Of a stretch of 64,000 nt of DNA, positions 3,396-58,798 are shown piece by piece (positions within the stretch are counted from its first letter, which is position 1; each line of letters starts with the position of its first letter). Origin of the DNA: Escherichia phage UPEC01; the sequence record MW233709; one strand, 5' to 3'. The position numbers and the translations under genes were made by a program. Below the pieces are notes generated by a model. That model was not told where the DNA came from, did not search any database, and worked only from the letters and a program-made list of their open reading frames with translations.

Positions 3396-3686
3396 ATGAA
3401 ATCATCTTTTCGCTTTAATGGTCAGGAACTGGTAGTTGAGAATGTTATCCCGGCTTCAGAAGAGTTTGACAGCGCGGTGGGTAATGAACTGCGGCGTGTG
3501 TTTGGCGAAGATAAGAAGTTTGACCTTCGCCCTGTTGAAAACTTTGTAAATTCTGAACAAACAGAAAATATTTTTAATGGTGTAGTAACTGGGCAACTTG
3601 AATCTGAAGCACCAATTGCAATTACAGTCTTTGCTAAGAAAGAAGTTGTAATGACTGCAGCAGGTTTCATTTCATTCCGCAAATAA
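3396..3686 (+). CDS. hypothetical small protein (alt-adjacent, possibly alt.-1-like)
   Basis: 96-aa ORF from internal ATG of the track ORF 3363..3686; candidate early promoter upstream and terminator hairpin directly downstream. Confidence 0.55.
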   Translation: MKSSFRFNGQELVVENVIPASEEFDSAVGNELRRVFGEDKKFDLRPVENFVNSEQTENIFNGVVTGQLESEAPIAITVFAKKEVVMTAAGFISFRK

Positions 3687-3715
3687 AAAAGGGACCTTCG
3701 GGTCCCTTTCTTTTT
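3685..3715. terminator. bidirectional terminator (GGGACC-UUCG-GGUCCC) between ORF 3396 and gene 54
   Basis: A-run, perfect 6-bp stem with UUCG loop, T-run; identical hairpin recurs at 16341 and inverted at 40801. Confidence 0.8.
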
Positions 3716-4673
3716 ATAATATACGTTGACTTCCACCAGAGACTGTTCTCCCAGAACCAGTGAACGTATTGTACAGACTTGTTAATCCAGATTGAGCACC
3801 AGACAAGCGGCTCAATCTGGCAACTTCTGAGTTCAAGTTGTTATCTGAACTAATACCAGATACACCTTTAATAACCTTATCTTCCAACCATTCCAATGCC
3901 GCAGCTCTTCCCACCGCACCAGTTGACATAACGCGATAAGCAAAAGTCACATCAAATGTAGCTATCTGATTATCCCCTTCATAACTCAATTCAGGTGCAG
4001 ATACACTTACAGGAACACAACCAGTTAACATAACAACCGTATGCGGTAACCCATTACGCGAATGAAGGTTAACCTGAATATCAGCTTCAACGTCTTCAGG
4101 CAAGGCCCTTAGCTGGGTAACTGGGTCCTGTACAGAGTTGACCCAATCGTTAAATGCTCTAAAGTTCCCTGCCTCTGAATCCATTCTAAAGCTCAATACC
4201 AACGGAGAATATTCTCTCCCGGTTATCTTGATATTTGGTGCATTATGGTTAAGGTCCATTTCGTAGTTCAATGTGTTATCCGGAAGCTTAACAGAGTGAA
4301 CTAATAGACCAGCCGTTGGATAAGCCATATTAAAGAAATCAAGCAGGTAAGTACCAACCTCAAATTCCCCTAGTAACGATTGCACAACACGGTTACTCAT
4401 TGCCCCGATAAGATATTTGCTTATCCCTGATTTGCGAATAAGCTTTTGTGTCCCGGCAGTAACAAGAGTTGTTATCCCCTGAGTTAAGTCACCTTGTGTT
4501 AATCCGAACCAATCTGAGTTAACAGGAAGGTTACTGAATAATGCGCCACCGAACTGGTCCAGAAGATTCTGAGATTTGGAGGAAGGCGTGGTCGCGAAGA
4601 CCACACTAAAAAGGTTATTCCTCTGCAAGTCGATATTAATCGCTTGTGTTTGAAATTCTTGTAAAGTAAACAT
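3714..4673 (-). CDS. 54: baseplate tail-tube initiator gp54
   Basis: 319 aa; position and size match T4 gp54 (320 aa recalled), downstream of 48 in the 29-48-54 block. Confidence 0.8.
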   Translation of the reverse strand: MFTLQEFQTQAINIDLQRNNLFSVVFATTPSSKSQNLLDQFGGALFSNLPVNSDWFGLTQGDLTQGITTLVTAGTQKLIRKSGISKYLIGAMSNRVVQSLLGEFEVGTYLLDFFNMAYPTAGLLVHSVKLPDNTLNYEMDLNHNAPNIKITGREYSPLVLSFRMDSEAGNFRAFNDWVNSVQDPVTQLRALPEDVEADIQVNLHSRNGLPHTVVMLTGCVPVSVSAPELSYEGDNQIATFDVTFAYRVMSTGAVGRAAALEWLEDKVIKGVSGISSDNNLNSEVARLSRLSGAQSGLTSLYNTFTGSGRTVSGGSQRIL

Positions 4674-22717: not shown

Positions 22718-23536
22718 TTAAGAAATTCGTGATGCTGCGAGAGCAGACAAGTCCGCGAAGGACAGGGTAGGCTTGGCGCCTTTTTCTTCAACTGCTTCTG
22801 AAATGTAATTCAGTGCCGCAGCATCGTCTACATTTTTATTTATAGCGGCTTCGGTGATTGGTTTGTCGGTGGGTTCTACCTGACCTTTAACCATTTCAAC
22901 GATAGCGCCAATTTTGGTACCGAATGCATCAGAGTATTCCATGCCTTCTACCAGAGAACCAACTTTTTCTTTTTGGGATTCAGTCAGGTCTTTAGTTGCT
23001 TCAGTCAACGCAACTTCACGTTGGACATAATTGATATAAGCATCACGCTTAGAAACTTCTTCGAACAGGTTAGCGGTTTCTTCTTTCTGTTCAGCCAGTT
23101 CTTCCTGCATTTCTGCAACAACATCGACAGATTCTTCTGGAACAACAACGTTGTGCTCAACGAACAGTTCTTTCATGCCGGTGAACATGGATTCGAACAG
23201 GTCAGCTTTAATGCCACGGTCGACAGCCAGTTTATTTTCAGCGAGCCATTCTTTAGCAACGTGGTCCAGGAATTTAGCTGCAGATTCTTTCAGTTTTTTC
23301 TCTGCTTTTTCGTCGGCTTCTTCTTTATTCTTTTCGACTTCTTCTTCAGCTTTTTCAGCGATGGCGTGAATGTGAGATTCTGCCAGTTTGATGGCGTGTT
23401 GCTTGACGGTAGCTTCGAATACAGTGCCGAAGGTAGCTTTCGCTTCCGGGGACAAATTAACTGATTCGAAAATACTATCGAGAGCAACGGAAGCATCGAT
23501 ATTCTGAGCTTCAGAAATGAGTTGTTCTTTAAGCAT
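22718..23536 (-). CDS. 22: prohead core scaffold protein gp22
   Basis: 272 aa, acidic coiled-coil; size and position match T4 gp22 (269 aa); late promoter 30 nt upstream. Confidence 0.88.
   Translation of the reverse strand: MLKEQLISEAQNIDASVALDSIFESVNLSPEAKATFGTVFEATVKQHAIKLAESHIHAIAEKAEEEVEKNKEEADEKAEKKLKESAAKFLDHVAKEWLAENKLAVDRGIKADLFESMFTGMKELFVEHNVVVPEESVDVVAEMQEELAEQKEETANLFEEVSKRDAYINYVQREVALTEATKDLTESQKEKVGSLVEGMEYSDAFGTKIGAIVEMVKGQVEPTDKPITEAAINKNVDDAAALNYISEAVEEKGAKPTLSFADLSALAASRIS
22837..22844 (-). promoter_or_regulatory. candidate late promoter TATAAATA inside gene 22 (gene 23)
   Basis: Octamer on minus strand about 140 nt upstream of gp23 ATG; none found closer. Confidence 0.4.
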
Positions 23537-23565: not shown

Positions 23566-23573
23566 TATTTATA
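23566..23573 (-). promoter_or_regulatory. late promoter TATAAATA (gene 22)
   Basis: Octamer on minus strand 30 nt upstream of gp22 ATG. Confidence 0.65.
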
Positions 23574-24207
23574 ACGTCTTTAAAGCCTCTGCGAGAGCCA
23601 TAAAGGCGTCGTCGGCACTTGTATCGGCTTCCGCCGTTTGTGATTCTGTAATCTGCTTTGGTTTGACCCAAGCGTCCGGAGCACTTGGCCCCCATACTGC
23701 ATCTACTCCAACCGTCAATTTAAAACCTTCATTGACGATGTTATAACCTTTTGCTGATTTAGTCAGGGAACCGAGCCCACGACTAGATACACCAGGAATC
23801 CAACCCGCTCTTATATTCGCAGCAAGTTTATCACCTGGGCCATGGTCGCCTTCGATAATACGCGCGCGGCCATATACATCATTCCCTTTCCACCACATTT
23901 CCTCGATAATAATTGCCGCCTGCATAGGGTCAACGTTTGCACGAGGTGGATGGTTTAATTCTCCAAGAGACTGCTTGGTTTCAACCTGTTCGGCGATATA
24001 GTCCGCAACGGCTTTTTCCAAAATATGTTTAGGATAAAGTCGTTTATTACGGTTAACAACTTCAGCTTGTAGGAAAATACCTTCAATATAAAGTCCTGGC
24101 TTTAAACCGCTGCTGGAACCATCATGAGATTCCAACATCGGTACACCATCTTTAATTTCGCCCGGTTGACCCCAGTGTTCGATTAGTAACTCTGGTTTCT
24201 GTTCCAT
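23569..24207 (-). CDS. 21: prohead core protease gp21
   Basis: 212 aa; LIEHWGQPGEI.DGVPMLES.DGSSSGLKPGLYIEGIF.QAEVVNRNKRLYPK...GDHGPGDKLAANIRAGWIPGVSSRGLGSL matches T4 gp21. Confidence 0.95.
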   Translation of the reverse strand: MEQKPELLIEHWGQPGEIKDGVPMLESHDGSSSGLKPGLYIEGIFLQAEVVNRNKRLYPKHILEKAVADYIAEQVETKQSLGELNHPPRANVDPMQAAIIIEEMWWKGNDVYGRARIIEGDHGPGDKLAANIRAGWIPGVSSRGLGSLTKSAKGYNIVNEGFKLTVGVDAVWGPSAPDAWVKPKQITESQTAEADTSADDAFMALAEALKTL

Positions 24208-52074: not shown

Positions 52075-52747
52075 AATTAATTGCGATTGTGGGTAAAAAA
52101 CGCAGTGGTAAAGATACGACTGCTGATTATGTTATTAGTCAAAATGGAACAAAGTGGCAGCTTGCAGGTCCGATTAAAGAAGCGCTTTATAACGCGTGGA
52201 TTCGTCAAGACCTGCCACACAATTTGACCCTGGAAAATTTTGATGGACAAGGTTACGACCGTGAAAAAACCTTAATAATGAACAACACCGAAGCTTATAT
52301 TCTTCTGGTTGATGCTCTTGAATGGTTGAAACAACAATACAATCTTGACCTTCCGAATCCGGATATGGTTCGTAAAATTATTGAATTTCACACACTAAAT
52401 AATGTTGAGCCCTGGACAGTTAGACGTTTCATGCAGACCCTTGGAACTGACATTGTTTGTACAGAGTTCGACAGCATGTTTTGGATTAAAACTTTTGCCT
52501 GCGACTATCTTGACAACCTCTATTCTGGATATAAATATTACGTTGTCCCAGATGTTCGCCAAAAGAACGAACTTGATTCGCTTCGGGCGATGGGTGCTAC
52601 AATAATCTTTGTAGAACGCGATGAAGCAAATCATTCTACTGATACACACATTACGGAAGCTGGACTTCCACCACTAGCTAGTGACATTGTTATTAAAAAC
52701 GATGGCACACTCGAAGAACTTTTTGATAAAATTAATAAGGTAATATA

Positions 52748-52748
<1 letters not shown>
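52071..52748 (+). CDS. 1: deoxynucleoside monophosphate kinase gp1
   Basis: 225 aa; P-loop GKKRSGKDT near N-terminus; ATGA coupling with gene 3. Confidence 0.88.
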
Positions 52749-53438
<690 letters not shown>

Positions 53439-53439
<1 letters not shown>

Positions 53440-53478
53440 TGTACAAATGAGTGTAGGTGCAGTATTATGTTCCTACAC
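53439..53478 (+). promoter_or_regulatory. early promoter / stem-loop cassette H (GTGTAC, 18 nt, TATTAT; -10 enclosed by inverted repeat GTGTAGG/CCTACAC)
   Basis: Immediately after 57B stop; same architecture as cassettes at 54422, 54755, 55065 and 58809 but a different stem sequence. Confidence 0.55.
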
Positions 53479-53499
53479 CAATGAACGAACGGAGTTAAA

Positions 53500-53832
53500 A
53501 TGAACATCAAAACTTACAACGAGTTTTTAGCCGAATCCGCCATCAATGAGACCAAATCAATTGATGATAGTGAAGGCTCTCTGAAATTTGGTTTATCCAA
53601 AAATGCAGATGGTGTTTTCTTTCAGATTGGTAATGAACGTTTTCAAACGTCCAAATATTCCAAAGCTGCAGTTGAAGCTGTCCTGAAATCTGGTGGCAAG
53701 TGGAAAGGCAAAGAAGGTACTAAAGAAATTGGTATCGCTGTTGACGGCGGTATGGCTTATTTTAAAATTGGCGATGAACAATTTATTATGTCTGCTCGCG
53801 GACGTAAAGAACTGGCAAAACTTTATAAATAA
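53500..53832 (+). CDS. internal-protein-like gene 1 (capsid-targeting leader MNIKTYNEFLAE)
   Basis: 110 aa; N-terminus matches the T4 IPI/II/III targeting leader MKTYQEFIAE with an LxE cleavage-type motif; first gene after promoter H. Confidence 0.6.
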   Translation: MNIKTYNEFLAESAINETKSIDDSEGSLKFGLSKNADGVFFQIGNERFQTSKYSKAAVEAVLKSGGKWKGKEGTKEIGIAVDGGMAYFKIGDEQFIMSARGRKELAKLYK

Positions 53833-53840
53833 GGTTTCTT

Positions 53841-54113
53841 ATGAAAACTTTCAATGAATTTTTCAACGAGTCACAACTGAATGAAGAAGTAAAAATTAGT
53901 AAAGCAGTCAAATCTATGATTGACAATATCAATCACCTGTATAGCATTGACTTGACTGACCATATAACAATTGGTAACAAACGCAACTTTTTCGCGTTTG
54001 ACATTTCAGAACTTGACCAGAACCAAATTAATAACATTGAGCGTTTTGCCAATGACAAGGGTCTCCGTCATGAGACAGCTGGTTATAAAAAATATGCAAT
54101 TTATCTAAAATAG
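53841..54113 (+). CDS. internal-protein-like gene 2 (leader MKTFNEFFNE)
   Basis: 90 aa; leader-like N-terminus; 8-nt spacing from previous gene; body unrelated to neighbours. Confidence 0.6.
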   Translation: MKTFNEFFNESQLNEEVKISKAVKSMIDNINHLYSIDLTDHITIGNKRNFFAFDISELDQNQINNIERFANDKGLRHETAGYKKYAIYLK

Positions 54114-54121
54114 GATTTCAA

Positions 54122-54421
54122 ATGCAAACTTTTCATGAATTTTTGGTAGAAAACAATTACCTGGCAGAAGCAAAAACCTGGCCTCTGGGTCTTCAGAAGA
54201 AAAACACCTACAAATGGGTTGACTTCAAAGGTAAAGGCGACGCTGAAGACTTTGACCAGCTGCGTAAAAATGGTTATACCTTCCTTGACTCTAACTATAA
54301 CAAAATTACCTCTTTTAGTCAGAAGTCAAGCATTGCCTTCATTGAAACTGGTAAGAACTCTCCTAAAGATATCACTGACGACTTCACCGCTTATGGTGTA
54401 ATTCGTGGTTCAAAAATGTAA
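54122..54421 (+). CDS. internal-protein-like gene 3 (leader MQTFHEFLVE)
   Basis: 99 aa; leader-like N-terminus; 8-nt spacing from previous gene. Confidence 0.6.
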   Translation: MQTFHEFLVENNYLAEAKTWPLGLQKKNTYKWVDFKGKGDAEDFDQLRKNGYTFLDSNYNKITSFSQKSSIAFIETGKNSPKDITDDFTAYGVIRGSKM

Positions 54422-54458
54422 TGTACACGATGGGATAGTTGCAGTATAATTATCCCAT
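54422..54458 (+). promoter_or_regulatory. early promoter / stem-loop cassette A (TGTACA, 17 nt, TATAAT; inverted repeat ATGGGATA/TATCCCAT)
   Basis: -10 hexamer lies between the two 8-bp arms; followed by CAACTACTGGAG (RBS) and ATG 54477. Confidence 0.55.
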
Positions 54459-54476
54459 CAACTACTGGAGCTACTA

Positions 54477-54755
54477 ATGAAAACTTATCAAGAATTTATT
54501 AACGAATCAATTAGTCACCCGGATATGCTGGAAGACCTGAAAGGACATCTGATGGTTAAGGCCAAACCGGTTGATGGTGGCGCATTTGAGTTGTTTCTTG
54601 TTAAAGGCGAAAACGGTCCTGATAACAAGAAAGTTTCAGCAATGATGTTGACTAAAGGTTACAAAGTCAGTTCTTCCTGGAATGCTCCATTCACTTACGC
54701 GGTAAGCCCTCGTGAACTGAAAAAAGTTAAAGCTGGACAATATACAAAAATTTAG
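54477..54755 (+). CDS. internal-protein-like gene 4 (leader MKTYQEFINE)
   Basis: 92 aa; leader-like N-terminus; own early promoter/stem-loop cassette upstream. Confidence 0.6.
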   Translation: MKTYQEFINESISHPDMLEDLKGHLMVKAKPVDGGAFELFLVKGENGPDNKKVSAMMLTKGYKVSSSWNAPFTYAVSPRELKKVKAGQYTKI

Positions 54756-54793
54756 TGTACGTGATGGGATAACTGTAGTATGATTATCTCATC
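54755..54793 (+). promoter_or_regulatory. early promoter / stem-loop cassette B (GTGTAC, TATGAT; ATGGGATA/TATCTCAT)
   Basis: Near-identical to cassette A with one arm mismatch; precedes ATG 54810. Confidence 0.5.
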
Positions 54794-54809
54794 AACTACT
54801 GGAGACCAC

Positions 54810-55064
54810 ATGAAAACTTATCAAGAATTTATTACTGAATCTGCAAATGCAAAAGTTGAGTTTGCTTATGTTGGTTCGCCGCGTGGCAGTTTTTCCAATG
54901 AGGAATTCCGTCGTTCACTGGACAATTTCATGCAGTTAAGTGCTGAAGTATCGCATGATGGTCGTTATGACATCGTTACTATTAGCGGTTCTGAAGACCT
55001 TATCAAAAAGTGGCACAAGCAGAAAGATGTTGAGATGCGTTACTATCGTATCCCTAAAAAATAA
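54810..55064 (+). CDS. internal-protein-like gene 5 (leader MKTYQEFITE; possibly IPI-like)
   Basis: 85 aa from ATG 54810 (GGAG RBS); leader-like N-terminus; own promoter cassette; size similar to T4 IPI (95 aa). Confidence 0.6.
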   Translation: MKTYQEFITESANAKVEFAYVGSPRGSFSNEEFRRSLDNFMQLSAEVSHDGRYDIVTISGSEDLIKKWHKQKDVEMRYYRIPKK

Positions 55065-55101
55065 GTGTACTTTTAAATGGGATAGTGTATGATTATCCCA
55101 T
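55065..55101 (+). promoter_or_regulatory. early promoter / stem-loop cassette C (GTGTAC, 17 nt, TATGAT; ATGGGATA/TATCCCAT)
   Basis: Same cassette as A; precedes ATG 55122. Confidence 0.55.
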
Positions 55102-55121
55102 CAACTACTGAGGAGAATAAA

Positions 55122-55307
55122 ATGAAACGTTGCGAATTAATTAGAAATGTTACTGCCCTTGTTGCTGTTACCACTTTTGGTTTTAGCATGTTTGCTGGCT
55201 TTATGTTGAATATGCTTTCAACTTCTGAGAATATAATCTCTTTAGTAGTTGCATTTTTAATTGGTTCAATCTCTTTCGTTATGGATAAAATCTCTAAAGG
55301 TGAGTAA
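55122..55307 (+). CDS. small hydrophobic membrane protein
   Basis: 61 aa from ATG 55122 (GAGGAG RBS); two hydrophobic helices (VTALVAVTTFGFSMFAGFML, IISLVVAFLIGSISFV). Confidence 0.5.
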   Translation: MKRCELIRNVTALVAVTTFGFSMFAGFMLNMLSTSENIISLVVAFLIGSISFVMDKISKGE

Positions 55308-55308
55308 A

Positions 55309-55698
55309 ATGTATAAAGTGTATGCGGATTATCAGGCAAATCCATCTGAAAAACCAGATTGTCAAATTGGGTGGGCGCATGACACCCTGCTTGAAGCGGT
55401 AGACGAAGCTCAAAAATTAGGGTATAGTTATGTAGATATTGTTCAACCAAATGGAACAGTTATTACACTTGAAGAATTCAAGAATATCAAAACAAACTTT
55501 TTGCTTTTTGCAGGTGATAGCTATTATCCTCGTGGCGGTTATGCTGACTTAATCGCAAAGGCTGCGACTGAAGATGAACTGCGTGATATCATTAAAGAAA
55601 ACGAGAAGAAGCCTTGTTATGGTTCCAACCGTTTTGACTGGTGGCAGATTGTTAATGCCAATACGCATACTATTGTTGATGAAGGAACATGCGAATGA
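55309..55698 (+). CDS. hypothetical protein
   Basis: 129 aa from ATG 55309 immediately after previous stop; GGTGAG RBS. Confidence 0.55.
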   Translation: MYKVYADYQANPSEKPDCQIGWAHDTLLEAVDEAQKLGYSYVDIVQPNGTVITLEEFKNIKTNFLLFAGDSYYPRGGYADLIAKAATEDELRDIIKENEKKPCYGSNRFDWWQIVNANTHTIVDEGTCE

Positions 55699-56171
55699 AT
55701 ATCAAATTTGGTCAGACCATCCCTAAAGGTTATGTGATTGAAATTGAAACCTGGGAAAATGATGGTGACAACTATAAAACCCAAACGGTATTTGGCGTAG
55801 AAGAACAAGAAATCCAGCAGTACAAATATATCCTGGAACTTTTCCATGGTTCGCATTGCAACAACCGCAACAAATGTGGTAATTCAGAATGGGATGTGGT
55901 TAAACACTTGGTTATCGCCCACATTGCATCTGGCGTAAAATCTGGCCAGTTGACTTATGAATTTTTGGATAAAGTTCTTGGTATCCAAGACTTAGAAGCC
56001 TTGCTGAATGATGATGAAGAAGCATACTATTTGAATGAAGCCCTTACTGAGCTCCTTGGTATGGCTTGCGAATATGATGGCGATTTCATGCGTGTAATTT
56101 CTTATGTTAAGCTATATATAATCGAAGAAGAAATCCGAATCCCATCTGTTAAAGGGCTTGATATGCTTTAA
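55695..56171 (+). CDS. hypothetical protein
   Basis: 158 aa; ATGA coupling with previous gene; GAAGGAA RBS. Confidence 0.55.
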   Translation: MNIKFGQTIPKGYVIEIETWENDGDNYKTQTVFGVEEQEIQQYKYILELFHGSHCNNRNKCGNSEWDVVKHLVIAHIASGVKSGQLTYEFLDKVLGIQDLEALLNDDEEAYYLNEALTELLGMACEYDGDFMRVISYVKLYIIEEEIRIPSVKGLDML

Positions 56172-56291
56172 CAAAAACGCGTTATTATTAATAAGTACCC
56201 TCTATTACCAAAGGTTCTTCCCTCAAAGAATCTTTCATAATAGCATGTGCTATTAATCAAACTTACTTTACTTAATTTTACTTGAGGTGTT

Positions 56292-56561
56292 ATGTTAGTA
56301 TTAAAATTAGCTTTTTACGACCCTAAAACAAAGACAACCACTACCAAACGTTGCTCTATTTCGTATGAGTGTCAATTTGGTGAAATTCAGCATCCAACAG
56401 GCGAAACCTTTATGTCAATTGGTTGTTCAACATTCAATAAAGTCAAATTAATCCCGTTGGTTAATACGGCGGCTTATCTGGTTGCTCCAGAAGAAATGAC
56501 TTATCATACAATTCAGCATATGGTTAAAGATGATAATGCTCCTGCTGGATTTGTAATTTAA
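56292..56561 (+). CDS. hypothetical protein
   Basis: 89-aa ORF with GAGGTG RBS; ends 5 nt before the first tRNA. Confidence 0.5.
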   Translation: MLVLKLAFYDPKTKTTTTKRCSISYECQFGEIQHPTGETFMSIGCSTFNKVKLIPLVNTAAYLVAPEEMTYHTIQHMVKDDNAPAGFVI

Positions 56562-56566
56562 TTTTA

Positions 56567-56640
56567 GGCCCTGTAGCTCAATTGGTTAGAGCATCCGGCT
56601 CATAACTGGCAGGTTTCCGGTTCAAGTCCGGATGGGGCCA
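56567..56640 (+). tRNA. tRNA with CAU anticodon (Met or lysidine-type Ile)
   Basis: Cloverleaf by hand: acceptor GGCCCTG/TGGGGCC, D-arm GCTC-AATTGGTTA-GAGC, anticodon loop CTCATAA (one U-C mismatch in stem), T-arm TCCGG-TTCAAGT-CCGGA; T4 itself carries a CAU tRNA-Ile. Confidence 0.8.
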
Positions 56641-56642
56641 CC

Positions 56643-56719
56643 CGGGGTGTAGCTCAATTGTATAGAGCAACGGTCTTCTAAACCGTAGGTTGTGGGTTAG
56701 AATCCCACCACCCCGACCA
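56643..56719 (+). tRNA. tRNA-Arg (anticodon UCU), CCA encoded
   Basis: Acceptor CGGGGTG/CACCCCG, D-arm GCTC...GAGC, anticodon stem ACGGT/ACCGT with loop CTTCTAA, T-arm GTGGG-TTAGAAT-CCCAC, then A-CCA; T4 encodes tRNA-Arg(UCU). Confidence 0.85.
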
Positions 56720-56734
56720 ATTACTGAGGATATT

Positions 56735-56974
56735 ATGGTTATTAGTGAATCATATGCAGTTATGGATATAACCAGCAACGAGCTGGTTTATAGCTTTGAT
56801 GAGTTTGACGAAAATGATAAACAAGTCCCATGGTTTGCATTAACTGCTCCACCTGAACATAATAAATATCTAAGTTTCCCGACTCGCAGACTAGCAACAA
56901 ATTTTATGGAATTCAATGACCTTGATTCCAATTATAAGGTTGTTAAAGTCAAATTAGCTATTACAATTGAATGA
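56735..56974 (+). CDS. hypothetical protein
   Basis: 79 aa from ATG 56735 (GAGGA RBS); the longer track ORF (56690) would overlap tRNA-Arg. Confidence 0.45.
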   Translation: MVISESYAVMDITSNELVYSFDEFDENDKQVPWFALTAPPEHNKYLSFPTRRLATNFMEFNDLDSNYKVVKVKLAITIE

Positions 56975-57164
56975 GAAGCCGGGTCGCTACCGGTAAGTCG
57001 TCGGGGCCTGTTCCCTGGGGTATTGTTCCTCCCACAGTTTTCTGTGTTCTGGTTCTTTACTATCACATCAGGCACGGCGCACCTTTTACGGAGTTTTTCC
57101 AGAGCGGGCGGTGCGCCCGGTAGTATGAGAAATCCGAGCGGATGGTGCATCCGGTACTATGGAA
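56975..57164 (+). ncRNA. candidate small stable structured RNA (cf. T4 species 1/2 RNAs next to the tRNA genes); speculative
   Basis: About 190-nt non-coding, unusually GC-rich segment directly after the tRNAs, with several stable stems (e.g. GGCGCACC...GGTGCGCC, CGGATG-gtg-CATCCG). Confidence 0.25.
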
Positions 57165-57172
57165 TATAAATA
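57165..57172 (+). promoter_or_regulatory. late promoter TATAAATA (leader-bearing ORF 57204)
   Basis: Octamer 31 nt upstream of ATG 57204. Confidence 0.6.
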
Positions 57173-57203
57173 TTAACAACAACCCTAATAATGGAAAAAC
57201 AAA

Positions 57204-57587
57204 ATGCTTACATATGCAGAATTTTTAAATCGCAATACCATCACCGAATCCGTACTGACTGAAGCTGGCAAATTTTCTTTAGTGGCTCCAGAAAAAGCCG
57301 GCGTTTCAATTGGTGACCGTGTTATGTTCAAGAAACCAGTTAATGGCGTTTCTTGGGGTATCGTAACTGGGTTTGGTATCAAAGCTAAAGATGTTAAAAA
57401 CGCCGCCGCGCCAGGTGCTAAACTAGCCGGTTCCAAAGTTTCAACTTATATGGTTCGTCCTAAACAGTCTCCAGGTAATGGTGCCGCTGACTGGGTTGGT
57501 GCTCCAATCGAAATCGCTCGTGATAAATTCTTGAACATCACTGACCGTGCCAACGAACGCGCTGCAATGGCATTCGCTCGCGGATAA
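57204..57587 (+). CDS. internal-protein-like late gene (leader-like MLTYAEFLNRNTITE)
   Basis: 127 aa; N-terminus resembles the capsid-targeting leader with an ITE motif; late promoter TATAAATA 31 nt upstream; terminator downstream. Confidence 0.55.
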   Translation: MLTYAEFLNRNTITESVLTEAGKFSLVAPEKAGVSIGDRVMFKKPVNGVSWGIVTGFGIKAKDVKNAAAPGAKLAGSKVSTYMVRPKQSPGNGAADWVGAPIEIARDKFLNITDRANERAAMAFARG

Positions 57588-57623
57588 GAACACTTGCCTT
57601 GCAGGTGGAACCCCGACAAGGTA

Positions 57624-57652
57624 TAGCCCCTTCCGAAAGGTTGGGGCTTTTT
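57624..57652 (+). terminator. rho-independent terminator after ORF 57204
   Basis: GCCCCttCCgaaaGGttGGGGC followed by T6. Confidence 0.7.
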
Positions 57653-57676
57653 TATAAATCAACTAAAGAGAAACGT

Positions 57677-58231
57677 ATGAAACTGTTAAAATATTTGAGT
57701 TGGATTCTGTTAGTTCCGCTGGATTTTATCTCCATGATTCTGGCCGTTATCCTGGCTCCATTTGTAGTTCCGTTCCATAATAAAAAGACTGGTAAACTTC
57801 CGTTCGGGTTTGATTGGATGATGACTTATGATAATCCGATTGATGGTGACCGTGGTCATATCAAACGTTGGTCAAAAATCCGAAAATGGCCATTAGGTGT
57901 TTACTTCCAACGAGTAGCCTGGCTCTGGCGAAACAAAGCATACAATTTTGCTTACCACAAGCTCGGTCGTGATTGCAATTCAGAATTCCATTATAAAGGT
58001 AATCCTGATGTTGAATCTGGTTCCCCAGATAAAGCTCATCATGGATGGCTCTTTATGTGGACGGACAATGCCTGGGGTGTTTTTGCTTCTGTTCCTTATC
58101 TTAAGGTCGGTGGAATCACCTTTTATCTGCGTGTTTATTGTGGCTGGAAGCTCAAGAGCCTTCTGTCCCGACCCATCCCTAAGGCTATGCTCGCCTTTCA
58201 TATAAATCCGTTCCGCTTTTATAAGAACTAA
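57677..58231 (+). CDS. hypothetical membrane-anchored protein
   Basis: 184 aa from ATG 57677; N-terminal hydrophobic helix LLKYLSWILLVPLDFISMILAVILAPFVVPF; terminator downstream. Confidence 0.5.
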   Translation: MKLLKYLSWILLVPLDFISMILAVILAPFVVPFHNKKTGKLPFGFDWMMTYDNPIDGDRGHIKRWSKIRKWPLGVYFQRVAWLWRNKAYNFAYHKLGRDCNSEFHYKGNPDVESGSPDKAHHGWLFMWTDNAWGVFASVPYLKVGGITFYLRVYCGWKLKSLLSRPIPKAMLAFHINPFRFYKN

Positions 58232-58255
58232 CAGCCCGCATTGCGGGCTTTTTTA
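58232..58255 (+). terminator. rho-independent terminator after ORF 57677
   Basis: GCCCGC-att-GCGGGC followed by T6. Confidence 0.8.
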
Positions 58256-58291
58256 TACCCCGAATAAATTTGAAATTTTCTTCAAAAAGTA

Positions 58292-58340
58292 GTGTACATC
58301 CAAATTGTCTGGGTGCATAATGATTCCATACTGAGTTACA
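58292..58340 (+). promoter_or_regulatory. early promoter cassette E (GTGTAC, 18 nt, CATAAT, then leader GATTCCATACTGAGTTACA)
   Basis: Upstream of ATG 58373; leader shared with cassettes at 20758 and 59361. Confidence 0.5.
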
Positions 58341-58372
58341 CACTGAATCAAACAAAACTTTGGAGAAATAAA

Positions 58373-58798
58373 ATGAACTTTCTGACCCTGACCTCTGCAT
58401 TCTCTGTTACCCGCATCACTAACAAAATGGTTGCTGACGAAGTATGTGAAATCTGCATTCGTGAAGATGCACTTATCCATCTGACTTCAACCCAGATTGT
58501 TGCCATTGCCAAGTCCCTTAATTCTGAACTGAAGGTAAACACCAAACAGTCAAAAGAATCTATCATTGAATTAATCCAAGCTGAAATGATTGAATTCCCA
58601 ATTGAAGAAGTTAAAGAAGAAAAAATCCAGTCCAAATCTGGTAACGCTCGTGACATTTGCTTCCAGGCATTTGCAGAAATTGATATGAATGATAATGCAG
58701 CTCGTCGCGCTCTGATTGATGTTCTGGTTACCACCCATGATATCAAAAAGACTGTTGTTCAGTCATATGCATCCAACTTCCGCAAAGCTCAAAAATAA
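58373..58798 (+). CDS. hypothetical protein, paralog A (shared C-terminal domain with 58882..59325)
   Basis: 141 aa; C-terminal ...NDNAARRALIDVLVTTHDIKKTVVQSYASNFRK; own early promoter (GTGTAC, 18 nt, CATAAT). Confidence 0.55.
   Translation: MNFLTLTSAFSVTRITNKMVADEVCEICIREDALIHLTSTQIVAIAKSLNSELKVNTKQSKESIIELIQAEMIEFPIEEVKEEKIQSKSGNARDICFQAFAEIDMNDNAARRALIDVLVTTHDIKKTVVQSYASNFRKAQK

Follow-up and report, generated by a model that had tools for sequence, protein, structure and literature searches.

The window, a stretch of 64,000 nucleotides (nt) from Escherichia phage UPEC01 (record MW233709), derives from a Gaprivervirus, a VR7/SP18-like member of the Tevenvirinae and a relative of T4. Between genes 57B and tRNA.4 it carries five consecutive small open reading frames (ORF1-5) that very probably form the ipI-type internal-protein (IP) locus of this genus and encode packaged IPs. 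Each begins with the capsid-targeting sequence (CTS) of the T4 IPs, and beyond this leader the five cargos are unrelated to one another. An earlier note on this DNA, made from the letters alone, had described the five genes as candidate injected anti-defence proteins. That interpretation is correct but rediscovers a system described since 1994; the polymorphic IP locus of T-even phages was reported in Repoila 1994, as cited in PMC2839356, PMC3012670 and PMC12373910. The principle that one capsid-targeting tag is shared by interchangeable, injected anti-defence cargos is established, and no new concept comes from the window. The additions to the known picture are the assignment of ORF5 to the Ip6 superfamily, a duplication within ORF1, the leaders on the 'hypothetical' proteins of ORF1 and ORF4, and a sixth CTS gene (ORF6, at 57204), which the note missed; the five genes that it listed are real. 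They are as follows (lengths in amino acids, aa; pI, isoelectric point).

ORF1, 53500-53832, + strand: 110 aa, leader MNIKTYNEFLAE; mature protein 98 aa, pI 9.3; phrog_3966 (unknown function).
ORF2, 53841-54113, + strand: 90 aa, leader MKTFNEFFNE; Ip9 family; mature pI 6.8; phrog_7673, E 2.5e-56.
ORF3, 54122-54421, + strand: 99 aa, leader MQTFHEFLVE; mature pI 9.1; phrog_2667, E 1.3e-21.
ORF4, 54477-54755, + strand: 92 aa, canonical leader MKTYQEFINE; mature pI 9.6; phrog_15565 (unknown function).
ORF5, 54810-55064, + strand: 84 aa, canonical leader MKTYQEFITE; mature pI 9.0; phrog_8111, 'internal virion protein'.

A Shine-Dalgarno sequence lies upstream of each. The lengths given in the earlier note stand for ORF1-4 (110, 90, 99 and 92 aa), and ORF5, which it gave as 85 aa, measures 84 aa from the MKTYQEFITE start. 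An in-frame ATG upstream of ORF5, at 54780, falls within a promoter cassette (described below) and is unlikely to be the start of this gene.

The CTS was defined on IPIII, the first ten residues of which suffice for incorporation into the head, and in the summary of Mullaney and Black 1996 given by PMC9026906 residues 4 and 7 are assigned to targeting and residues 8 and 10 to processing by gp21 at an L/I-x-E site. T4 IPII and IPIII begin MKTYQEFIAE, and T4 IPI begins MKTFKEFTSTTTPVSTITE, with an extended leader ending in TITE (positions 16-19). The five leaders of the window read exactly as the note had quoted them and match the T4 leader at the mapped positions 4, 7, 8 and 10. Position 4 is Y or F and position 7 is F in ORF1-5 and in ORF6, the ORF1 leader having a 2-residue N-terminal extension. 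The claimed L/I-x-E motif occupies positions 8-10 in ORF1 (LAE), ORF3 (LVE), ORF4 (INE) and ORF5 (ITE), and fails in ORF2. All six frames of the 64 kb were scanned for T[YF]xEF at most 6 codons from a start codon, in ORFs of at least 40 aa, and exactly six ORFs carried the motif, namely ORF1-5 and the one at 57204. The chance level, taken from 100 simulated sequences of matched dinucleotide content, had a mean of 0.02 and a maximum of 1.

The leader requires two head proteins, gp21 and gp22, which bind or cleave CTS proteins, and both are encoded in the window:

gp22 scaffold, 22718-23536, − strand: Pfam T4_CASP, E 3e-91.
gp21 prohead protease, 23569-24207, − strand: Peptidase_S77, E 7e-102.

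The head-morphogenesis module to which they belong lies on the opposite strand from the array and also has gp23, gp67, gp68 and gp20; gp23 carries the expected L-T-E/AEIGG site. The predicted mature proteins of ORF1-5 are 8.6-10.7 kDa, with a pI of 9.0-9.6 in four of the five, and the mature T4 proteins IPI*, IPII* and IPIII* have a pI of 9.0-9.65. Pairwise comparison of the mature parts of ORF1-5 gave no BLASTP similarity (best E 1.6), and hhalign of all six mature domains, for which the profiles are shallow, found no hidden paralogy (probability ≤1.1%). The statement that the proteins share nothing beyond the leader holds within the window, and needs correction for ORF5, which has relatives in the Ip6 superfamily.

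The setting of the array is that of the T4 ipI gene. The gene order in the window is 2, 3, 1, 57A, 57B, ORF1-5, tRNA.4, tRNA.3 and two tRNAs; T4 shows the same order with a single ipI gene between 57B and tRNA.4, as the earlier note had stated. The T-even IPs at this locus (Ip1-Ip13 and more; Repoila et al. 1994, Comeau et al. 2007) share the same slot and the CTS leader with the window genes; their cargo is likewise small and basic, promoter/hairpin elements of the same kind flank them, and close relatives differ in which of them are present. The borders of the locus are conserved:

Gene 57B, 52984-53439, + strand: left border; phrog_755, E 3e-65; same position as T4 57B.
tRNA.4 homologue, 55113-55307, + strand: right border; phrog_1692; annotated in VR7 and T4.

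The locus is 99.5% identical to that of Escherichia virus TH41, and about 35 further records match it at 95-98% identity. For a wider comparison, 28 loci around 57B were fetched from viral contigs, together with those of VR7, EAWsc9, TH44 and T4; the interval count covers 31 loci, with TH44, fetched later, counted separately. Across the 31 loci the length of the 57B-tRNA.4 interval varies between 260 and 1915 nt; except in L020 and L024, it contains from one to five ORFs, of which nearly all start with the CTS. The comparison across related phages that the note had proposed found CTS ORFs in the interval of all but two loci. Gapriverviruses have four or five CTS ORFs per array, and TH44 (L033, 368-2254) has six, its array being that of the window with one more gene, of 80 aa (MKTYQTFITESSHGMEVKLG...), inserted at the cassette that precedes ORF4. 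T4 differs in having one gene in the ipI slot and two at e-denV, against four to six in this genus and none at e-denV (EAWsc9). In EAWsc9 (L032, 1-696) the lysozyme gene e directly adjoins denV (endonuclease V), which indicates that the second T4 IP locus (ipII/ipIII) is absent from this Gaprivervirus.

ORF1-3 are spaced by 8-nt gaps with no cassette between them, and ORF4 and ORF5 each stand behind a promoter-like/hairpin cassette. This grouping had been recognised before; two more cassettes were found, so that there are four, of about 55 nt, before ORF1, ORF4, ORF5 and tRNA.4:

Cassette 1, 53440-53499, + strand: -35-like TGTACA, 17 nt, TATTAT; hairpin GTGTAGG...CCTACAC encloses the -10; GGAG Shine-Dalgarno; promoter-scan match at 53440-53468; fold -15.6 kcal/mol, z -2.5.
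Cassette 2, 54422-54476, + strand: TGTACA, 17 nt, TATAAT; hairpin GATGGGATAGTTG...TATCCCATC; then CAACTACTGGAG; promoter scan 10/12; fold -17.3 kcal/mol, z -3.6; repeat families D3, D4 and D6.
Cassette 3, 54756-54809, + strand: GTGTAC...TATGAT; hairpin GATGGGATAAC...TATCTCATC; then CAACTACTGGAG; 85% identity to cassette 2 over 60 nt (D4); fold -15.3 kcal/mol.
Cassette 4, 55065-55112, + strand: upstream of tRNA.4; orthologous to the T4 ipI-tRNA.4 element (T4 ...ACCCTATCAACTACTGAGGAGAATAAAATGAAACG matches).

In the general layout, the stop codon of the gene before is followed by a -35-like GTGTAC(A), a spacer of 17 nt separates this from a -10-like TATAAT, TATGAT or TATTAT, and CAACTACTGGAG then provides the ribosome-binding site. 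The hairpins have stems of 7-13 bp with the -10 inside, and fold at -12.6 to -17.3 kcal/mol (z -1.5 to -3.6). The same architecture can be read directly in the surroundings of T4 ipI, ipII, ipIII and denV (GTTTAC, a hairpin around TACTAT, ATCAACTAC-GGAG). Among 69 distinct upstream regions the stem sequences vary and the pairing is kept, as in GATGAGGTA/TACCTCATC, GGTCTATAG/CTATAGACC, GATGGGATA/TATCCCATC and GTGTAGG/CCTACAC. Judging from the literature, the cassettes would act as promoters or attenuators. More than 30 IP variants are known, and Repoila et al. saw promoter/stem-loop elements at two variable IP loci, as reported by Arbiol et al. (PMC2839356). The PeSL cassettes of RB49 and phi1 (Arbiol et al. 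2010) also combine a promoter and a stem-loop; they lie on the flanks of small accessory genes and serve as sites of recombination. They are analogues, not homologues, of the IP-locus elements, which have T4-type early promoters and AT-richer stems (PMC2839356), and the window cassettes differ from them in having the -10 hexamer inside the hairpin.

The T4 late-promoter consensus, TATAAATA, occurs 22 times in the window, where 4.9 matches would be expected. An exact copy at 53824-53831 (+ strand), conserved in relatives, overlaps the last codons and the stop of ORF1. We considered it as a late promoter for ORF2 and rejected it: it ends 9 nt before the ATG, probably too close to be useful.

Differences between close relatives map to the cassettes and leaders. 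In this genus the content of slots 4 and 5 varies: slot 4 may have the 92-aa ORF4, an unrelated protein of 80 aa, the two together or no gene at all, and slot 5 has either the 84-aa protein of the window or Ip6, of 77 aa. Compared with six relatives, the window shows breaks in homology at 54151, 54422-54440, 54506, 54747, 54856 and 55051, and every one of these breakpoints lies at a cassette or at the end of the 30-nt CTS-coding sequence; cassette 2 is the breakpoint of the EAWsc9 and TH44 rearrangements. Cassette and CTS together form a direct repeat of about 100 nt that flanks slot 4 (54411-54470 and 54745-54804 are 85% identical, 54477-54508 and 54810-54841 94% identical). Breakpoints and direct repeats at these places are direct evidence that cassettes are shuffled by homologous recombination. 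The breakpoint map is a clean example of leader-coding DNA and promoter/hairpin cassettes jointly serving as recombination sites. The mature domains of all CTS ORFs fetched fall into 15 BLAST families, 11 of which were found in the 57B-tRNA.4 interval.

The cargo proteins are recognised to different degrees in existing annotation. ORF2, ORF3 and ORF5 are already labelled as internal head or virion proteins in PHROGs or GenBank (ip9, ip6-like). ORF2 is the Ip9 of RB32 and VR7; it is named ip9 in the VR7 record, which has ip6 at this locus as well, its PHROG (phrog_7673) is labelled 'internal head protein', and nine homologues at other loci have the canonical leader MKTYQEFIAE. ORF3 belongs to phrog_2667, 'internal head protein', and its VR7 counterpart, ORF154c, has the same name in RefSeq. 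ORF1 and ORF4, both in PHROGs of unknown function, are hypothetical in nearly all annotated records consulted and never called internal proteins there. ORF4 is confined to Gapriverviruses, with 17 phage records, and is hypothetical in all 13 that are annotated. ORF1 consists of an internal duplication, two tandem repeats of about 40 aa (score 49; shuffled sequences had a mean of 21.6 and a standard deviation of 4.1, and 0/500 reached 49), and its relatives in other genera bear the leaders MKTYKEFLAE or MKTYDEFLTE. A weak BLAST bridge between ORF1 and the Ip6 family (E 5e-4, 27 residues) had no hhalign support and is treated as unproven. Two labels in the EAWsc9 record, 'profilin' for the ORF1 orthologue (3605-3937) and 'homing endonuclease' for the ORF3 orthologue (4227-4526), have no Pfam, PHROG or NCBIfam support and look like annotation artefacts.

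On alignment and profile evidence, ORF5 is a divergent member of the widespread Ip6 superfamily. The EAWsc9 orthologue, near-identical to ORF5, matches VR7 Ip6 with a BLAST E of 1.3e-8; ORF5 aligns with Ip6 (T6, VR7) over the full mature domain, but identity between the mature domains, measured on the EAWsc9 orthologue, is only about 39%. Some Gapriverviruses have ORF5 in place of Ip6 in slot 5. An alignment of 10 superfamily sequences across the whole mature domain has G60, I65 and W68 invariant, and a superfamily profile search found 24 clusters, several of them named internal head or core protein. Word-index homology searches had found three clusters for ORF5 and one for ORF6, and the superfamily profile and exhaustive HMMER searches reached further. 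The AlphaFold model of ORF5 has the order strand-helix-strand-strand-helix-strand, a ferredoxin-like topology, at moderate confidence (predicted local distance difference test, pLDDT, 63.5). Foldseek searches of the PDB with the ORF5 and ORF6 models returned only generic ferredoxin-like and SH3/PWWP-like barrel matches (best E 0.036 and 0.07), and no function can be read from these predicted folds.

The sixth CTS gene lies outside the 57B-tRNA.4 interval, past the tRNA genes and an rnaD-like region, and has its own signals:

ORF6, 57204-57587, + strand: 127 aa, extended leader MLTYAEFLNRNTITE with SVLTE next; the sequence starts MLTYAEFLNRNTITESVLTE.
Late-promoter motif TATAAATA, 57165-57172, + strand: exact, 32 nt upstream of the ORF6 start.
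Terminator-like hairpin, 57627-57655, + strand: AGCCCC...GGGGC, then a T run; 3' of ORF6; read from the sequence.

Position 10 of ORF6 is R, but ITE at 13-15 and LTE at 18-20 offer candidate cleavage sites, and the extended leader is comparable to that of T4 IPI. The predicted mature pI is 10.1, and the model is a beta-barrel with a C-terminal helix (pLDDT 70.6, moderate confidence). ORF6 occurs in 15 Gaprivervirus records, is hypothetical wherever annotated and matches no PHROG. Its only distant homologues among 1.8 billion representative proteins, P0027 and P0028, start MYTFKEFLVESELDLITE and MKSFKEFMLSE, so the ORF6 family as a whole carries the tag. Other T4-like genera have unrelated CTS proteins of 154-205 aa at a comparable position past tRNA.4, 2.4-4 kb downstream of 57B. 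A terminator hairpin and TATAAATA precede four of these larger CTS genes (at 8809 in L008, 9947 in L009, 9033 in L012 and 9852 in L014), and this arrangement is missing from two others (10465 in L006, 10165 in L029). The pattern suggests that IP genes with late promoters form a second class, distinct from the early-cassette one.

By analogy with T4, we infer packaging, cleavage, injection and anti-defence activity for the products of ORF1-5; any particular target would be named with less confidence than the nature of the locus. The CTS of about ten residues on each protein would bind the gp22 scaffolding core of the prohead through its aromatic positions 4 and 7, and gp21 would cut after the L/I-x-E at positions 8-10. 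The mature proteins, small (8.6-10.7 kDa) and mostly basic, would stay with the DNA in the head and be ejected with it into the next host, where each would most likely inhibit one specific nuclease-type defence by direct binding. The array itself gains, loses and exchanges genes through homologous recombination between cassettes and between the 30-nt CTS-coding repeats. The presence of the CTS on diverse cargo has been regarded as an anti-defence arsenal (PMC3012670). The T4 proteins Ip1, Ip2 and Ip3 inhibit three distinct type IV restriction enzymes of the GmrSD kind by direct binding, one enzyme per protein (Silas et al. 2025, PMC12373910), which agrees with the earlier description of T4 IPI* as an anti-restriction factor. 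Silas et al. 2025 propose that other IP-locus proteins target further GmrSD variants (PMC12373910).

The window proteins resemble T4 IPI* (a GmrSD inhibitor with a nuclear magnetic resonance structure), Ip2 and Ip3 in size, charge and presumed delivery logic (CTS, gp21 cleavage, injection). They differ from them in having no similarity to PDB chains in the sequences searched, ORF1 and ORF5, which gave no matches even at E 10, and in coming from a genus without known hydroxymethylcytosine enzymes (PMC8056088); neither these two sequences nor the ORF5 and ORF6 models show similarity to a characterised inhibitor. Other ejected anti-restriction proteins, such as the Dar proteins of P1, are also packaged in the capsid and co-injected, but belong to another phage lineage and use another packaging mechanism, with no CTS or gp21 processing.

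Several points weigh against reading the five ORFs as packaged, injected inhibitors. Residues 8-10 of ORF2 are F-N-E, not a canonical gp21 site (LNE follows five residues later), its mature pI of 6.8 is near neutral, and VR7 has alleles with further drifted leaders, MKTFNELFNE for ORF2 and MQTLHEFLVE for ORF3; targeting or processing of these two proteins may be weaker. The cassettes resemble early promoters, whereas prohead incorporation requires late synthesis. The motif at 53824 is the sole exact late-promoter motif within the array, and late expression of the array would depend on read-through, for instance from a motif at 52530. Neither a virion proteome nor N-terminal data on these proteins turned up in the literature consulted. 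Scans of all six proteins with Pfam, NCBIfam and PADLOC gave nothing above noise, no clue to an activity came from these or from PDB searches with the ORF1 and ORF5 sequences, and the ORF5 and ORF6 models had no significant fold match. The GmrSD-type targets of the T4 IPs may also not apply to Gapriverviruses, which lack known hydroxymethylcytosine enzymes and keep DenA, DenB, Alc and dCTPase (PMC8056088), so that the host nucleases that matter to them may not be the GmrSD variants that T4 counteracts.

These points have to be set against three other explanations. Some members, especially ORF2 and ORF3, might no longer be packaged efficiently and might be early cytoplasmic proteins whose leader is kept mainly as recombination homology. 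We consider this quite improbable: ORF2 homologues of other genera retain a perfect MKTYQEFIAE, in the window alleles positions 4 and 7 are still aromatic and position 10 is still glutamate, and T4 IPI is packaged despite F at position 4 and a divergent leader. The idea draws on the F at position 8 and neutral pI of ORF2, on the L for F replacements in VR7 at position 7 (ORF2) and position 4 (ORF3), which are targeting positions (PMC9026906), on the early-promoter look of the cassettes and on the breakpoints at the end of the CTS-coding DNA. Alternatively, the proteins could be packaged via the CTS for mainly structural or physical reasons, such as neutralisation of DNA charge, condensation or ejection of the DNA, or core assembly, and not for inhibition of defences. 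Such a role, which we think unlikely, would suit the four basic mature proteins among the five and what is known of the T4 IPs: there are about 300 copies of each, they bind DNA under low-salt conditions, and head assembly is perturbed when IPIII is lost (PMC9026906). It leaves unexplained the 15 unrelated cargo families, the presence or absence of genes between near-identical phages and the one to six genes per locus, and all three T4 IPs have defined anti-restriction targets (PMC12373910). Finally, that the shared N-terminus arose by chance or stems from a non-packaged family, so that the ORFs are not one functional class, is effectively refuted. There are six leader motifs against 0.02 expected, the locus is syntenic with T4 ipI, the leader-bearing genes are conserved in many phages, and where the earlier note had allowed for homology to an unrelated, non-packaged family, the family-level matches are to annotated internal proteins.

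With the reading as packaged IPs preferred, it is possible, though we hold this only tentatively, that all six CTS proteins are injected effectors of a genus without the known hydroxymethylcytosine pathway and that at least some, notably ORF4 and ORF6, both restricted to the genus, and the repeat protein ORF1, inhibit defences other than GmrSD-type type IV restriction. In that case their folds and targets would be new, they would count as novel anti-defence proteins, and the region, with 57B/Acb1, would be a delivery-tagged anti-defence island. The practical value is a short list of six small tagged proteins (predicted mature size 8.6-11.7 kDa), three of which, ORF1, ORF4 and ORF6, are not recognised as internal proteins in the annotations and family libraries consulted. 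As all three T4 IPs are specific inhibitors of type IV restriction, each uncharacterised cargo is a reasonable probe for a new variant of host defence.

The neighbourhood of the array holds a few further features. Gene 57B is labelled among relatives either as the anti-CBASS protein Acb1 or as 'RNA ligase'; by the Acb1 annotation in EAWsc9, a known anti-defence gene adjoins the IP array. An Rfam scan of 52500-58500 returned two tRNAs and nothing else. A GC-rich non-coding stretch at 56970-57083 (+ strand), after tRNA-Arg, resembles T4 rnaD (species 2 small stable RNA), with 97% identity over 35 nt at the 5' end and 85% over 27 nt at the 3' end; no Rfam model matched it, and the ORFs listed mechanically within it are probably spurious. 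Directly after ORF6, a 210-aa ORF (57599-58231, + strand) matches DUF7338 (E 6e-63) and has a predicted membrane-like N-terminus.

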